Source of the DNA: a virus
Taxonomy: Duplodnaviria; Caudoviricetes
Strand: one strand, 5' to 3'
DNA: 64,000 nucleotides
IMG/VR virus record: IMGVR_UViG_3300032007_000065
Span: 1-64,000 of that record
The notes under the pieces: model-generated
Database searches by the model: none
What the model saw: only the letters and a program-made list of their open reading frames with translations
What the model was told of the DNA's origin: nothing
Part shown: positions 12,925 through 62,115 of the stretch, one piece after another
How positions within the stretch are numbered: position 1 is the first letter of the stretch
How the letters are laid out: each line of letters begins with the position of its first letter
Made by a program: the position numbers and the translations under genes

Positions 12925-12935
12925 TCGGGAGTCAC

Positions 12936-12970
12936 AAAAGAAAGACGATCTTCGGATCGTCTTTCTTTTT
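12936..12970. terminator. Bidirectional intrinsic terminator
   Basis: aaaagaaagacgatc-ttcg-gatcgtctttctttt. Confidence 0.85.
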
Positions 12971-24349: not shown

Positions 24350-24391
24350 AGCGAAAAGTCTCGAATTTCGGCCACATATAATTCTAGTGAG
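24350..24391 (+). promoter_or_regulatory. Stable-RNA-type promoter, copy 1
   Basis: agcgaaaagtctcga-N7-ccacatataattct-N-gtgag; same blocks and spacing at 30632. Confidence 0.8.
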
Positions 24392-24405
24392 AAAACATGG
24401 AGAAA

Positions 24406-24478
24406 CATACCGAAGTTCTAGTGGTGGAACGCAAGTCCAGAAAACTTGAGGTTGTCGGTTCGAGTCCGGCCGGTGCGG
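24406..24478 (+). tRNA. tRNA-like gene, anticodon AGA (Ser?), atypical or pseudo
   Basis: Acceptor cataccg/cggtgcg (one mismatch), D stem gttc/gaac, anticodon stem caagt/acttg with loop cc-aga-aa, T arm gtcgg-ttcgagt-ccggc; no encoded CCA. Confidence 0.7.
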
Positions 24479-24533
24479 GGCGCAAGCTCCGCGCTATGTT
24501 TTCTTGCTAGTGAATCTTCTTTTTTGTTGCTGG

Positions 24534-28259: not shown

Positions 28260-30443
28260 ATGCCCAGAAAGCCGAAAGCTGCCGAAGCTACGGCAACCGA
28301 AACTGAAGTGATCCCCACCGTCGAACCGATTCCCGCGGATGACAAACCAGCTCCGGATCCCGTCCTCGTCGACGCCACCATCCGGTCCCACGGCCTCTAT
28401 CCAAACTTTCGGTTCGACCCGAATGCAAAAGACAGCTACGAAGAGCAGGTCGTCCACAGCTGGTGGTTCCAGAACATCGAGAACTGCATGAGAATCATGA
28501 TCGACGACGGCTGGTACATCGAGAACTCGGAGACACCGTCGACCCTGGAAGAAGCCAGACCGGTGTTCGACCGGGTCTTCAAGTCCAGCGTCCCCATCGA
28601 CGACGAGCTGCTGGCGACGGCACTGCTGAACCACAGAATCCAGGTGTCGCCGAATCCGCCGAAACGTCGCCGCCGTGGTGGTCTGAAACCGCCGACTCCG
28701 GTCGACATTGCGGACGTCGTCTCCATTAAGGATGTCATGGCAGCAACGCCGGTCGGCGAACCAGTGTCCATCAAGCCGCTCATCGACCCGAAAACGAAAC
28801 TTTCGCAAATCGACATCTTCGACAACGTCGAGAATGCTGACAACGCCATCACATACAAGATCCCGGAAGACCCCTTCGAGGTGTCCGACGACGACAATGA
28901 GCCCATCATCCTGAAGGGGCGCGGTGGCTTCGTCGATCGGCCCGACAGCTTCAACATGATGACCTGGATCCCGCTGCCGGAGCAGACGTTCTTCGTCGAG
29001 AAGGATGGCATGATCGTGGCCCAGTACCTCGTCAACAGGTTCAACGTCCCGGAGGACCGCCACCTGTTGGAGTACATCATCGCCAAGAAGCACTATAAAG
29101 AGCGCATTCCGGATCTGATCCAGCACATCAACTACTTCGAGTCGTTCTATGACCATGACCATGAGTACCTTGTGTCGACACTGGCGACGAAGGACTACAT
29201 TGACCATCACCCGACGATGACCCAGAAGGCCTTCTGTCGTATGGTCGATGTCCGCATCATCACGCCGACCTTGGTCCGTAAGGTGAAGCACATGGCCCTA
29301 GATCTCTATCGACTCAACATCAACACTGACAAGGACGGCAAGTACAAGACGACGCCGAAGATCACCAATGACCATGCCCGCATGATTGTGGCGGTTTCCT
29401 TCTGCATCCGTCTCATCCTGCCTCTCTGCATCCATTTCTCGAACACCAATGCCACGTTCATCAACAAACGTGACTACATCGACTGCTTCGACCGCATTTT
29501 CATGAAGGTGGTCCAGAAGTTCGAAAAGAATGACACCGAGATCTGGAACCCTATCTGCCGCTTCGTCGCCTATCGCGTCGAGCGTTCCCAGACGACCGAT
29601 GCCGTCATCTGGGAAAAGAAGAAGCAGCTCTACGGCACCACCATGGAACTGTATCTCGAGACTCTGATTCACGAGGTTATCCTGGTGAAGTCTCTCCACA
29701 AGCTGGCATACAACCGGTCCATCGTGTCGTTCATCGATGGCATCATCACCCATTCGTACATGCACTACCGCTACGAAAACTTCAAGTTCAAACCCGTCGA
29801 AATCGAGAACGAAGACTCGGACTCCGACGACTATCTGAGCCACGTCGAGGCACTGGAGATGCAAATCTCTCGTGTTGACGAGAGCAATCAGCTGGTCAAC
29901 GAGACGAACATCGCCCAGGTCATGGCATCTCTCGAGAAACGGTTCAACGTCCCTATTGCAGAGGGAGAGCTGGAGTTCTACGTTGAAAACATCCACTTCA
30001 ACTCCCTGATGCAGTCGTTCCTGCATGCCTTCTTCTCGAAGTACTTCAACGACACCAACGCCATCCGCCTGCTGGATCGTCGTCGGTCTGCTCAGTTGGC
30101 ACTGTACCTGAAGAAGTATCTGCAACTCCGTGGTATGGTCATCCTGCCGCAGATCTGCACCGCCCGTGTTCACGGCAAGTTCAAGGACACCTGCATCAAG
30201 AACGCCAAGTTTCTCGAGAAGTTCACGACATCGAGCGTCTATCAGCACATCATCGCCGACAAGTATCGCTACATCGCCGAACTCCATCTGAAGGAGGACC
30301 CGATCGTCAAGATGCTGTCGACTATGCTGAATTCGAGCTTCGAGTTCTGTGACTTCGACCCCGAGATCAACGGACGCGTCGCCGAAGAGTTCGACACCGA
30401 CATGCTGGTGTCTGAATTCATGACGTTCCTGTCGATCTGCTGA
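28260..30443 (+). CDS. Large helical protein, candidate promoter-specificity subunit of non-virion RNAP (AR9 gp226/phiKZ gp68-like)
   Basis: CDS is solid (727 aa, AAAGGAG); the family assignment rests on recalled resemblance only. Confidence 0.4.
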   Translation: MPRKPKAAEATATETEVIPTVEPIPADDKPAPDPVLVDATIRSHGLYPNFRFDPNAKDSYEEQVVHSWWFQNIENCMRIMIDDGWYIENSETPSTLEEARPVFDRVFKSSVPIDDELLATALLNHRIQVSPNPPKRRRRGGLKPPTPVDIADVVSIKDVMAATPVGEPVSIKPLIDPKTKLSQIDIFDNVENADNAITYKIPEDPFEVSDDDNEPIILKGRGGFVDRPDSFNMMTWIPLPEQTFFVEKDGMIVAQYLVNRFNVPEDRHLLEYIIAKKHYKERIPDLIQHINYFESFYDHDHEYLVSTLATKDYIDHHPTMTQKAFCRMVDVRIITPTLVRKVKHMALDLYRLNINTDKDGKYKTTPKITNDHARMIVAVSFCIRLILPLCIHFSNTNATFINKRDYIDCFDRIFMKVVQKFEKNDTEIWNPICRFVAYRVERSQTTDAVIWEKKKQLYGTTMELYLETLIHEVILVKSLHKLAYNRSIVSFIDGIITHSYMHYRYENFKFKPVEIENEDSDSDDYLSHVEALEMQISRVDESNQLVNETNIAQVMASLEKRFNVPIAEGELEFYVENIHFNSLMQSFLHAFFSKYFNDTNAIRLLDRRRSAQLALYLKKYLQLRGMVILPQICTARVHGKFKDTCIKNAKFLEKFTTSSVYQHIIADKYRYIAELHLKEDPIVKMLSTMLNSSFEFCDFDPEINGRVAEEFDTDMLVSEFMTFLSIC

Positions 30444-30447
30444 AGAC

Positions 30448-30484
30448 AAAAGAAAGAAAGAGAGCCGATGCTCTCTTTCTTTTT
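30448..30484. terminator. Intrinsic terminator
   Basis: aaaagaaagaaagagagc-cgat-gctctctttcttttt. Confidence 0.85.
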
Positions 30485-30631
30485 ATCATGACGATAGGAG
30501 GGTCGGGAGAGACCGCTGCCGATAACGGTCTCTCCCTGTCGTGACGCAGTTTGAAATTGAAAAGTCCAGTCGAAACTGTCGCGGTTCCCCAACCGCTTAC
30601 GTTTCTGTCCATCTGTGTATAAATTTGAAAA

Positions 30632-30673
30632 AGCGAAAAGTCTCGATTTTAATCCACATATAATTCTTGTGAG
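30632..30673 (+). promoter_or_regulatory. Stable-RNA-type promoter, copy 2
   Basis: agcgaaaagtctcga-N7-ccacatataattct-N-gtgag, matching 24350-24391. Confidence 0.8.
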
Positions 30674-30865
30674 CAAACGGTGAAGAGTGGATAGCCGGTT
30701 GCTCGAAAAATGGTTCCTAGCTGCTCGGGACAAAGAGAGCGGTCGACGTCGCAGCGTCGAAATTAAATGTCGCCGTCTCCTGCTGAGGGACGTTGGTTCA
30801 GAAGCGACGAGTGGCGTAGTTTATGCCAGAAAGAAAAGATGTGACACTCCACAGCTTTTCTTTTT
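30670..30865 (+). ncRNA. Putative structured non-coding RNA (about 195 nt)
   Basis: Bounded by the tRNA-type promoter and a U-tailed hairpin; stems gagcaa/ttgctc, cgacg/cgtcg, gtcgc/gcgac, ggcgta/tatgcc. Confidence 0.55.
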
Positions 30866-30942
30866 GCCTGATAAACTACTATCGGCTCGACGAATCTCTA
30901 AGTCCCCAAGAAAACCACTTCATTAGAAAGGATGTGACACAA

Positions 30943-31995
30943 GTGGACCAGAATACACAAGCACCGGCGACGGAAGAGTCTCCGGCGCGTCCGCCTGTCG
31001 AACACAGTGACTGCACTCCTCCGGTTCAGATGACGCCGCATCGTTCGTTCAGCGACTTCCTCATCCGCGTCGACAATCTGACGTCGCAGCGAGCCGACTG
31101 GAGTGACCCGACGAACAAGAATCGGCCGTTCAAGCACAGCTTCATCGAGTTCATTCATCGGCTGGTGCTGCGCATGCCGGTGGCACCGGAACTGGTGCCG
31201 CTCACCGACGGAACGGTTCGATTCCGTTACCGCAAGAACCATGCTCCGAAGGACAAGTGGCAGGTGTTGGAAATCATCGTGACACCGAAGCGTGTCTTCA
31301 GTCTGACGGCGAGATCCCGTCTCCCGAACCAGGCACCGTACACCCGCACCAACACCGCCAGACCCGACATCCTGTCGGACCTCGTCCGGTCGTTCTACGA
31401 GCTCGACTCGGTCAATGTCCAGGACCATCCTCTGAAGTTCCGGTCCATCAATGTCAATGACATTCCGTACATCTCGGCCATGTGTCAGACATCATTTGGG
31501 CCGCACACCATCTATAAACCGAAAAACATCGGCGTCCTGCTGGACCACACCGTCGTTGCCGAAGATCCCATCTACGGCATCATGTCGGTGGCCGCCATCC
31601 ACAAGTCTGAACGCGATGACTTCGACTACGAAGTGTCTTTCCTGATCACGGTGGAGAATTGTCGTGGTCTGTCTCTGGCGTCCCAGTGTCTCCGGAAGGC
31701 CGTCACCAATGTGCTGGCCCAGGAGCCCGAAGCCGAGATTCTGGCGACGTCGATCCTGCCCGACGGACAGGTGAAGGACGTTGCCCAGTCGGCACTTCGC
31801 CGTGCCGGATTCCGTCGCATTCGCATCGTCCGCGGCGAGCGTCGCTATCGTTGCTTCGACTGCGATCGCTGCAACAAGACGAACGGCTGGTGTGACTTCG
31901 AAGATCCGAATTCGGTCTGCTCCACGGTCTACTACAGATTGTCGAACCACGGTGGCAAACTCGGCTATGGTGGTCGCAAGGTGACAGGCCAGTAA
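30943..31995 (+). CDS. Protein with C-terminal GNAT-like domain and Cys cluster
   Basis: GTG 30943 after AAAGGA; ITVENCRGLSLAS...LRRAGF followed by CFDCDRC..C..C. Confidence 0.6.
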   Translation: MDQNTQAPATEESPARPPVEHSDCTPPVQMTPHRSFSDFLIRVDNLTSQRADWSDPTNKNRPFKHSFIEFIHRLVLRMPVAPELVPLTDGTVRFRYRKNHAPKDKWQVLEIIVTPKRVFSLTARSRLPNQAPYTRTNTARPDILSDLVRSFYELDSVNVQDHPLKFRSINVNDIPYISAMCQTSFGPHTIYKPKNIGVLLDHTVVAEDPIYGIMSVAAIHKSERDDFDYEVSFLITVENCRGLSLASQCLRKAVTNVLAQEPEAEILATSILPDGQVKDVAQSALRRAGFRRIRIVRGERRYRCFDCDRCNKTNGWCDFEDPNSVCSTVYYRLSNHGGKLGYGGRKVTGQ

Positions 31996-32017
31996 CTTCT
32001 AGAAGGAGGTCCGGTGA

Positions 32018-32821
32018 ATGGCCGACCAACTGTTGCCGCCGAAGATGTACCTGCCACACAGCGAAGACACAATGATTGAAGTCCGAGCCATTGTTGCCAC
32101 AGACAAGGTAGGTGTCATCGGCTACGACAATCATCTGATTTTCAACAACCCAGACGATCTCAAGACCTTTCGAGCAAAGACCATCGGTCGTGTCGTCGTC
32201 ATGGGTCGAAAGACATTCGAATCCATCGGCAGGATTCTTCCGGATCGTCAGACCATCATCCTGACACACGACCCGAAGTCCTACACCGAGAAAGTGCTCA
32301 AGAACTACCACTGCAAGAGAGGCACCGACACCCCGAGACCGATCGCAACGGATCGACTCGACCAGACCGTTCCGGAAGTCTGTGAAACCTACGGATCCCA
32401 TAAGGTCTGGATCGTTGGTGGCGCCGAGCTCTACCGTGGCTGCAGCAATGCCATCGGCACCTGGATGGTCACCGAATACGCCATCGAACTCGAGCAGTAC
32501 CTCAGTGACAGCGATCAGGATCCGGTCGGTGTCAGCTGCGGCCTTCTGCCGAAGGACTATGACTACCGGAAACTGACGACACTCGAACGATCCATCTATA
32601 CGAATCAGGCGTCCGTCAACACCCTGGAACTTGGACGCTTCAACGTCGACGGCCACGACATTCGTTATGCCGTCAAGTCCTACAATCGCATGGGTCGTCT
32701 CCCGTACGGTAAACCGACGACTCGTAACAAGACGATCGACGAGATCGAAGAGATCAACCGTCGGCAGTACAGTCTTCCCCAGGACGAACACTACGGAATG
32801 GAGGCTGACAGCCATGATTGA
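32018..32821 (+). CDS. folA: Dihydrofolate reductase with extensions
   Basis: IVATDKVGVIGYDN, DDLKTFRAKT, VVMGRKTFESIG, LPDRQTIILT, WIVGGAELY. Confidence 0.92.
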   Translation: MADQLLPPKMYLPHSEDTMIEVRAIVATDKVGVIGYDNHLIFNNPDDLKTFRAKTIGRVVVMGRKTFESIGRILPDRQTIILTHDPKSYTEKVLKNYHCKRGTDTPRPIATDRLDQTVPEVCETYGSHKVWIVGGAELYRGCSNAIGTWMVTEYAIELEQYLSDSDQDPVGVSCGLLPKDYDYRKLTTLERSIYTNQASVNTLELGRFNVDGHDIRYAVKSYNRMGRLPYGKPTTRNKTIDEIEEINRRQYSLPQDEHYGMEADSHD

Positions 32822-33011
32822 CATCAGAGAGGTAACCGAGCTCCGAGACCGAGCAGTCGACGATCTTCATCGACTTCGCGGTCAGGTCTCTGATGCCATC
32901 GATGAGATCAGATACTCGAGCAACTGCGGCATTCCGCCCGGGAGACTCCTGGACGAATACCAGAAACTTCTTGAGTCCATCGACTGGTATCTCGGCAGGC
33001 AATCGAACTGA
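32814..33011 (+). CDS. Small hypothetical protein
   Basis: ATG 32814 after GGAGG overlaps the folA stop; terminator follows. Confidence 0.6.
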   Translation: MIDIREVTELRDRAVDDLHRLRGQVSDAIDEIRYSSNCGIPPGRLLDEYQKLLESIDWYLGRQSN

Positions 33012-33050
33012 AAATGAAGACTAGAGCTTCGGCTCTAGTCTTCATTGTTT
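33011..33050. terminator. Bidirectional terminator
   Basis: aatgaagactagagc-ttcg-gctctagtcttcatt. Confidence 0.8.
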
Positions 33051-33745
33051 TTCTTTTTGTATGTCGAATGTCGCACGATCTCTTCGATCTCGCGAATCTC
33101 TTTCTCGGCCTTCTGATCGTCCGTTGCCAGAGGCTCCGTGAAGAAGTCCTTCTGTTTCTCGATGATCTGGTCAATGAATTCCGTGTGGGCCTTGGTGTTG
33201 TCGTCGATCTTGTCGTTGATCTTCTTGGCATCTTCCGGATCCAGAAGAGCGCCGGCCATGATCTCGCCAATGGCCCGAAGCGTCGTAGACGTCTCGTTGG
33301 TGAATCGCATGTTGTATCCTTCGATCTCCATTAGCGCCTGAAGACGGTTCTCCGTCTGGGTGTGCATGTGCATCATCTGCGACATGGCCCTGGCGTTCTT
33401 CGATAGGATGGCCACAATGGAGTTGATGGATTCTTCGGCATGCGCCATGCGCTCCGCCATCTCAGTTGACACGTGGGTCAACTGAGTTTCAATGGAGTTG
33501 ATCTGGCGCTGCATCGAGTCCAGTGTCACCTGGAGTTTCTCACGCTCCTGCTGCTCATGTTCTTCCCGCAGCTGCTTTTCAGCAGCGTCGGCACGGGCCT
33601 TTTCGGCGGCAGCTTCGGCGTTCTGTTTCTTCTCTTTATCGTTACGGTGTGTGATCCAGGCGACGAGTACGGCGGAAAACATCGTACAGAGAGCCGGGAT
33701 GGCGACTGACAGAAGTGTTGCGGTAGTGCTGTCCATTGGCGTCAC
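33035..33745 (-). CDS. Membrane-anchored coiled-coil protein (holin/antiholin-like architecture, unconfirmed)
   Basis: One N-terminal TM segment followed by a long charged helix. Confidence 0.55.
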   Translation of the reverse strand: MTPMDSTTATLLSVAIPALCTMFSAVLVAWITHRNDKEKKQNAEAAAEKARADAAEKQLREEHEQQEREKLQVTLDSMQRQINSIETQLTHVSTEMAERMAHAEESINSIVAILSKNARAMSQMMHMHTQTENRLQALMEIEGYNMRFTNETSTTLRAIGEIMAGALLDPEDAKKINDKIDDNTKAHTEFIDQIIEKQKDFFTEPLATDDQKAEKEIREIEEIVRHSTYKKKNNED

Positions 33746-44192: not shown

Positions 44193-44200
44193 TTCGGGCT

Positions 44201-44235
44201 AAAAGAAAGAGAAGCTGAGCTTCTCTTTCTTTTTT
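44201..44235. terminator. Bidirectional terminator
   Basis: aaaagaaagagaagc-tga-gcttctctttctttt. Confidence 0.8.
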
Positions 44236-51322: not shown

Positions 51323-51332
51323 GAGTCGAGAC

Positions 51333-51365
51333 AAAAAGAAAAGAGCTCGCGCTCTTTTCTTTTTG
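51333..51365. terminator. Bidirectional terminator
   Basis: aaaaagaaaagagc-tcgc-gctcttttcttttt between convergent genes. Confidence 0.8.
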
Positions 51366-52865: not shown

Positions 52866-52920
52866 AAAGACTCCTTTCTCAGTTTCATCGTAATGATATG
52901 TGGCTGAGAAAGGAGTCTTT
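52866..52920 (-). promoter_or_regulatory. 17-bp inverted repeat that sequesters an SD, with the phage promoter motif in its loop
   Basis: 52866-52882 and 52904-52920 are perfect reverse complements; loop holds CCACATATCAT (52893-52903, minus strand); one arm holds GAAAGGAG of the GNAT gene. Confidence 0.75.
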
Positions 52921-59923: not shown

Positions 59924-59935
59924 GTTCCAGACACA

Positions 59936-59970
59936 AAAAGAAAGAGAGCGTCGCGCTCTCTTTCTTTTTT
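59936..59970. terminator. Bidirectional terminator
   Basis: aaaagaaagagagcg-tcg-cgctctctttctttt. Confidence 0.8.
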
Positions 59971-62001: not shown

Positions 62002-62076
62002 GCTACTCCTCCTTCGATTGACAAATTTATGGTCTGTCAGTTGACCGATGAGTTTCTATTCTGCGGATCCCAATAT

Positions 62077-62115
62077 AAAAGAGAGAAGAGTCGAAACTCT
62101 TCTCTCTTTCTTTTT
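62077..62115 (-). terminator. Intrinsic terminator
   Basis: aaaagagagaagagt-cgaa-actcttctctctttcttttt. Confidence 0.8.

Follow-up and report, generated by a model that had tools for sequence, protein, structure and literature searches.

Phage T4 makes two stable RNAs of 100–200 nt with no known function, species I and species II. Both are co-transcribed with tRNAs (PMC2330249). In the giant phage 201phi2-1, short promoter-to-terminator units yield small RNAs (sRNAs), 8 of 11 of which come from premature termination in 5′UTRs (PMC11512511). The guide RNAs of VIPR (vrRNAs) consist of a conserved tail preceded by 9–16 tandem copies of a five-base repeat, YNNGG (GGY/NN) (bioRxiv 10.64898/2026.04.26.720920). 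AR9 early promoters have the form AAATATATATTAT-(6N)-G+1 and are read by an injected virion RNA polymerase, and AR9 genes active all through infection carry an early and a late promoter together (PMC5312081). The AR9 late motif has the consensus AACA-(6N)-TA/G (PMC5449584).

We analysed a window of 64,000 nt at the start of an IMG/VR virus contig of 77.9 kb that is estimated to be 32% complete, and within it a stretch at 30632–30865 that a first-pass annotation had put forward as a structured RNA with the promoter of a tRNA gene. Our reading, held with slightly better than even confidence, is that this stretch encodes a discrete early small non-coding RNA made from a self-contained unit (Table 1). 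The RNA may also serve the acetyltransferase–DHFR operon that follows it, as a leader terminated close to the promoter.

Source phage and early promoter class

Judged by its genes, the source is an uncultured AR9-like jumbo phage of the rumen, because the gene upstream of the unit matches chain A of PDB 7S01, the AR9 non-virion RNA polymerase (E = 4.4e-15), as well as the PHROG family 'RNA polymerase'. DNA of this phage is present in gut metagenomes of cattle, sheep and goat from 17 studies. Assembled contigs from two bovine gut metatranscriptome runs are 100% identical to the window at 30126–30276, in the polymerase-subunit gene, and at 32135–32494, in the DHFR gene, and only there; that no contig falls on the unit speaks neither for nor against its expression. 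Downstream of the unit, the GTG start at 30943 is fixed by 27 homologues of ~350 aa each, among them one (P0002) that is 78% identical. The 350-aa product has no match in Pfam or PHROG; its C-terminal half is predicted to adopt a GNAT acetyltransferase fold (pLDDT 82; PDB matches with TM up to 0.72), and a conserved Cys cluster lies at its end. Together with the DHFR gene and a small ORF, the GNAT-fold gene forms an operon that is closed by a terminator near 33058.

The 36-base pattern AGCGAAAAGTCTCGA-N7-CCACATATAATTCT occurs at exactly two sites when up to three mismatches are allowed, 24350–24385 and 30632–30667, both on the + strand. It gave 0 matches in 100 shuffles, is absent from the 13.9 kb of contig past the window and returned nothing from IMG/VR. 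The first-pass annotation was thus right that blocks of identical sequence and spacing stand only here and before the tRNA-like gene. Past the pattern the two copies agree again, in TCTnGTGAGnAAAC, and BLAST aligns 47 nt at 87%. Five of the seven N7 positions differ between the copies while the flanking blocks are identical, which argues that the blocks are conserved functional elements and not the product of a recent duplication. In X4, a DNA run with a 96% identical strain and the only strain compared, the spacer is altered again (30651–30652) and both blocks are unchanged. The tRNA-like gene of the sister unit has an AGA anticodon, C at position 33 and a score of 37 bits, and follows a 17-nt leader counted from G24389; its A24409 is G in X4, where the acceptor pair is kept as G-U.

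The downstream half of this promoter is widely used. With at most one mismatch, CCRYATATMAT occurs at 16 sites on the contig, nearly all of them in intergenic DNA and directed towards a gene. At 15 of the 16, among them 30654 and 24372, the element is followed at exactly 6 nt by a G, in a genome of 27% G; these 15 sites have the AR9-type early layout of an AT-rich element, exactly 6 nt and G. The −10-like half CCACATATAAT, at first taken to be private to the two RNA units, instead belongs to a class of 15–16 sites. What holds of the earlier claim is that the unit and the tRNA-like gene have the same promoter; what does not is its status as a dedicated stable-RNA promoter, since it belongs to a general early class.

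Three other class sites, all on the − strand (52903, 1996 and 71622), have parts of the upstream block in the same register; partial matches are AAAAGnCTC at 52903 and CTCGATTTTcAT at 71622, the latter site driving a protein gene. From this partial recurrence at other early promoters, we take it, on sequence grounds, that the early promoter is bipartite and that the two RNA units have its fullest version. By analogy with AR9, we infer that the early class is read by an injected virion RNA polymerase. The early motif is also carried by relatives G001–G003, above a reversed-pattern control.

Followed downstream, the other class sites reach a start codon within ~18–85 nt (a count that covers all but the − strand sites 74994 and 73916); for the unit's own site the next start codon is 272 nt away, with a terminator between. 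A hairpin at or just past +1 is also seen at early sites 48315 and 1996. Several other promoter assignments were considered and set aside. A sigma-70 reading of the 30654 promoter has no −35 match, and a simple scan makes no call there. TCTAAG as a genome-wide promoter was rejected. TATAAT-variant sites in relatives lie mostly in apparent coding sequence, none of them followed by an obvious RNA unit.

Table 1. Coordinates of the unit, its parts and its surroundings, in window positions unless marked as contig positions.
Feature	Position	Strand	Remarks
Early-class sites, + strand	11470, 20434, 21210, 24372, 30654, 37882, 40083, 48315, 57302	+	In window
Early-class sites, − strand	52903, 1996 (window); 74994, 73916, 71622, 66304 (contig)	−	
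Sister unit	24350–24505	+	Same promoter, predicted start G24389, tRNA-like gene 24406–24478, own terminator
Upstream gene	28260–30443	+	AR9 gp226-like promoter-specificity subunit, non-virion RNA polymerase
Upstream promoter block AGCGAAAAGTCTCGA	30632–30646	+	Identical at 24350–24364
Core early-promoter element CCACATATAAT	30654–30664	+	Class CCRYATATMAT-(6N)-G
Predicted transcription start G	30671	+	By the (6N)-G rule; hairpin 1 begins with it
Hairpin 1	30671–30704	+	5′-terminal, 12-nt loop GAAGAGUGGAUA; −12.4 kcal/mol, z = −3.65; invariant in X4
Hypervariable single-stranded linker	30705–30719	+	In X4, 4 substitutions and 3 indels at 30705–30717
Hairpin 2	30720–30743	+	7 bp, 10-nt purine-rich loop; −9.5 kcal/mol, z = −2.7
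Hairpin 3	30744–30759	+	6 bp, 4-nt loop; −6.5 kcal/mol, z = −1.8; no X4 change listed
Hairpin 4	30764–30823	+	60-nt branched or bulged stem; −22.7 kcal/mol, z = −3.1
Extended 66-nt inverted repeat	30816–30881	+	Encloses terminator; −26.7 kcal/mol, z = −7.2
Intrinsic terminator	30828–30865	+	AAAGAAAG...CTTT(T)CTTTTT family; −14.5 kcal/mol, z = −3.9
16-nt copy (15/16) of next gene's ribosome-binding region (30925–30940)	30832–30847	+	In terminator 5′ arm
Late-promoter-like GACG-N6-TAAG	30889–30902	+	TCTAAG part kept in all relatives
Downstream gene	30943–31995	+	350 aa, GTG start
DHFR gene	32018–32821	+	Adjoins GNAT-fold gene, downstream
Other terminator-family members	12930–12970, 30452–30490, 44195–44235, 51325–51365, 59935–59970, 62075–62115 and others		

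Predicted transcript, fold and strain variation

The transcript is predicted to run from 30671 to ~30865, a length of 195 nt. Folding of 30669–30868 gives four hairpins followed by that of the terminator, with −72.6 kcal/mol and z = −3.15 for the whole. With the terminator left out, z is −2.14, only moderately better than chance, and the single elements range from z = −1.8 to −3.9. At the 3′ end, the terminator hairpin runs into the U run CUUUUCUUUUU. This agrees with the picture drawn in the first-pass annotation, which had described a separate unit of about 195 nt with four or five hairpins and a U-tailed terminator before the next gene: we find a promoter, four hairpins and the unit's own terminator, in that order, ahead of the downstream gene.

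The terminator belongs to a family of common design, AAAGAAAG(AGAG), loop, (CTCT)CTTTCTTTTT, whose members are often bidirectional. The CTTT(T)CTTTTT tail has 15 matches on the contig, mostly at gene ends, several of which are the two strands of one bidirectional hairpin. A simple terminator scan missed the member at 30828–30865 because its stem contains an A-G mismatch. The inverted repeat that encloses it adds a 9-bp outer stem, GTAGTTTAT with ATAAACTAC, and each of these 9-mers occurs only here; the 5′ half of this outer repeat competes with the closing stem of hairpin 4. Since the terminator 5′ arm is a near copy of the sequence at the next gene's ribosome-binding site (AGAAARGATGTGACAC), RNA that continues past the terminator could have this site paired with the 3′ arm. 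The ribosome-binding site of relative L005 keeps AGAAAGGACGTGACAC.

Strain X4 is invariant from 30613 to 30704 except in the promoter spacer, and the divergence of the RNA body beyond is about that of synonymous sites in the neighbouring gene, or higher. Among the 12 changes listed for 30705–30766 (the span covered for substitutions), 10 are unpaired, 2 keep a pair and 0 break one. Hairpin 2 has an A>G change in its loop and, through U30743>C, a G-C pair in place of G-U; in hairpin 4, A30766>G turns A-U into G-U, and indels lie at 30778 and 30784. A placement simulation of the 12 changes gave P ~0.005 if they are independent; because 7 of the 12 fall in one 13-nt linker, they probably represent few real events (perhaps 4–5 independent ones), and the support for conserved stems is modest. 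No double-sided compensatory change was seen in X4.

The sole + strand ORF of at least 40 aa within the unit, 30687–30926 (79 codons), crosses the terminator, just as the earlier annotation had noted. Six of the seven X4 indels in 3 kb fall at 30708–30784, all of them single-base, and give this ORF a net frame shift. The flanking genes carry no indels and differ at third-codon spacing only. This distribution of indels, six in the unit against none in the flanking genes, argues that the 79-codon ORF is not coding, and the ORF matches no PHROG family. By this evidence the unit is non-coding, in line with what had been claimed.

Relatives and known RNA classes

Neighbour-gene searches returned only four related loci (L003/L004, L005, L006 and L007), and none in GTDB genomes. 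All four keep the downstream gene, each with a different upstream neighbour, and at the unit's place they have non-coding spacers of 190–320 nt with hairpins and no early promoter. In these loci the RNA found no match by BLAST, local alignment or a single-sequence covariance model (three related contigs for BLAST and the model), and no remnant of the relatives' upstream genes was detected in the RNA region. Phage GenBank records likewise gave no homologue by blastn or tblastn. The homology and covariation search proposed in the first-pass annotation therefore returned nothing beyond strain level, and the RNA has been seen only in this phage's own strains. A single IMG/VR match to the hairpin-1 loop lies inside an unrelated gene and was dismissed as chance.

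Significant similarity between the window and the relatives' spacers is confined to L005 and to the stretch from a T run to the start codon. Conserved across the relatives, 3′ of the terminator, are the TCTAAG element, which stands ~40 nt ahead of the acetyltransferase start codon, and an extended Shine–Dalgarno region. The relatives have AACC or AACT-N6-TA at this place (L004 ~2947–2963; L005 ~2930–2950; L006 ~2915–2930), which fits the AR9 late motif and its spacing. Within this phage, intergenic DNA is enriched 8.6-fold in AAC[ACT]-N6-TA; the copy at 30889–30902 is degenerate, departing from the motif at −11 and −8 with GACG in place of AACN. At the unit's place, L005 has a 43-codon ORF (2786–2917) with a strong AGGAGG Shine–Dalgarno, and L004 and L006 have a Shine–Dalgarno and an ATG followed by only 13 and 8 codons.

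Searched against Rfam 15 with E up to 10, the unit returned only miRNA-model matches of 15–16 bits on the terminator palindrome, and the RNA belongs to no Rfam family, whether riboswitch, T-box, 6S, Y RNA, CRISPR repeat or ribozyme. It was also said not to match tRNA or tmRNA ends by eye, and our scans show neither type: ARAGORN and the Rfam tRNA model match only 24406, and 85% thresholds gave nothing in 30600–30950. Lowering the threshold to 70% gave only intron-containing calls, which are meaningless. An FsrA match of 26.5 bits (gathering score 80) lies upstream of the unit, at 30453–30536, and was rejected as a structural coincidence; it spans a bidirectional terminator and a second strong hairpin at 30505–30536. 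The phasing of vrRNAs is absent from the RNA, whose period-5 power of 0.39–0.59 compares with a shuffle mean of 0.73–0.81; array parts at 66.9–67.9 kb of the contig reach 2.3–3.6. Apart from the nearby 16-mer, the 78-kb contig has no repeat of the RNA and no match antisense to it above chance level, and pairing with the tRNA-like RNA is no better than for shuffles. A CsrA sponge was discarded, as the three GGA motifs are about the number expected by chance.

Competing readings and comparison with described systems

As we picture the discrete RNA, an injected virion RNA polymerase would read the bipartite promoter, by analogy with AR9, start at G30671 and stop near 30865 at a standard intrinsic terminator, leaving an RNA of ~195 nt. 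The hairpin that begins at +1 and the 3′ terminator hairpin would close the RNA, an arrangement that should favour stability. It would be made from the first minutes of infection, alongside the tRNA-like RNA, and would act in trans through its invariant 5′ hairpin, the stems of its fast-evolving body being kept for shape. Polymerase reading past the terminator would add early transcription of the acetyltransferase–DHFR operon. In favour of a discrete trans-acting RNA are the strong terminator of standard type, the absence of an antiterminator, the variation that spares the stems and the promoter in common with the tRNA-like gene. No target or partner was found among contig matches or by pairing with the tRNA-like RNA.

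Read-through could also be the main purpose of the locus, with 30654 as the early promoter of the operon, the terminator metering read-through as an attenuator and the 195-nt RNA a by-product. This terminated leader, which we consider rather unlikely, gains because 30654 is the sole early-class promoter upstream of the + strand genes at 30943–33012 and the late element is degenerate here, in contrast to the AACC or AACT of relatives that lack the early promoter; in AR9, both promoter types stand before genes that are active throughout infection (PMC5312081), 8 of 11 sRNAs of 201phi2-1 arise in just this way (PMC11512511), and the RNA body is poorly conserved. Yet the terminator belongs fully to the family found at gene ends elsewhere, no alternative pairing that would open it is apparent by eye, and the body holds no complement to its 5′ arm. 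Strain variation spares the stems, and the promoter and first transcribed bases are common to the tRNA-like gene and not to mRNAs. A leader that senses a ligand or tRNA (riboswitch or T-box) would share the order of promoter, structured RNA, terminator and gene, and a VIPR guide might be suspected from the 5-base phasing at 66.9–67.9 kb of the contig; both are very improbable and largely refuted, as there is no Rfam family even at E up to 10, no antiterminator alternative, no period-5 signal in the RNA and no special pairing with the tRNA-like RNA, and relatives that keep the regulated gene do not conserve the RNA.

That the stretch makes no functional RNA at all, its promoter copy being inactive or irrelevant and the remainder a fast-evolving spacer at a variable gene junction, we hold to be improbable. 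In its favour, each lineage has a different gene upstream of the acetyltransferase, the relatives' spacers there are unrelated, the body diverges fast between strains and the fold without its terminator stands out little from chance (z = −2.1). On the other side, both promoter blocks and the first 34 transcribed bases are invariant between strains while the N7 spacer and the body change, and the identity of the blocks in both units despite a different N7 indicates selection; a dedicated terminator also follows. Of all the readings, a small protein gene is the least credible and extremely improbable. The 79-codon ORF and an 18-codon ORF from ATG 30710 do exist, and L005 has its 43-codon ORF with a strong Shine–Dalgarno at the equivalent place; against this, the single-base indels of X4 shift the frame where the flanking genes have none, the 18-codon ORF stops after two codons in X4 (with the linker as reconstructed), and the 79-codon ORF crosses both the terminator and the promoter-like element of the next gene. 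Neither a PHROG match, a convincing Shine–Dalgarno nor a likeness to the L005 peptide was found.

On the preferred reading of a discrete early RNA, one further and quite speculative extension, to which we give little credence, is that this RNA forms a dedicated pair with the tRNA-like RNA, itself odd in having C33, an AGA anticodon and no long arm; the strongest early promoters of a thymine-DNA AR9-like phage would drive both, and the injected polymerase would make them ahead of any phage protein. The two might serve as joint decoys or cofactors against a host defence that targets RNA or tRNA, or might be the RNA component of a new phage ribonucleoprotein.

Such units are already known in other giant phages; if the RNA is real, the AR9 branch of the jumbo phages gains an early, polymerase-independent small RNA, none having been described there so far. 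For now the wider importance of the RNA is limited, as it is confined to one lineage and no partner of it is known. The two promoter copies, one before the tRNA-like gene and one before the sRNA, are a clean pair for defining early-promoter strength in the group, and the CCRYATATMAT-(6N)-G rule allows early genes to be predicted in its uncultured rumen phages.

Compared with described systems, the locus resembles attenuation leaders such as riboswitches and T-boxes in its order of promoter, structured RNA, intrinsic terminator and gene, and differs from them in that it matches no Rfam family, lacks an alternative antiterminator fold and is not conserved along with the regulated gene. As with T4 species I and II, a phage RNA stands under the same control as a phage tRNA. 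The T4 RNAs are cut from one long tRNA precursor, whereas here the RNA and the tRNA-like gene lie 6 kb apart, each with its own promoter and terminator, and there is no sequence relation between the T4 RNAs and this one. The early promoters are like those of AR9 in their extended AT-rich conserved element, fixed 6-nt gap and following G, at ~15 sites before genes, and the phage likewise codes for a gp226-like subunit and has AR9-type late motifs; unlike in AR9, the consensus is CCRYATATMAT, the genome has 54% GC and some sites have an extra upstream block. In layout, the unit is like those of the 201phi2-1 sRNAs and of the phiKZ sRNA upstream of gp182. Transcript sequencing revealed those sRNAs, one of which is conserved between genera, whereas the unit described here is predicted, in one species. 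Similar to them, it has a predicted start and terminator within 250 nt in an intergenic region or 5′UTR, and 201phi2-1 and phiKZ are, like this phage, jumbo phages with their own RNA polymerases in which one known unit adjoins a tRNA (PMC11512511).
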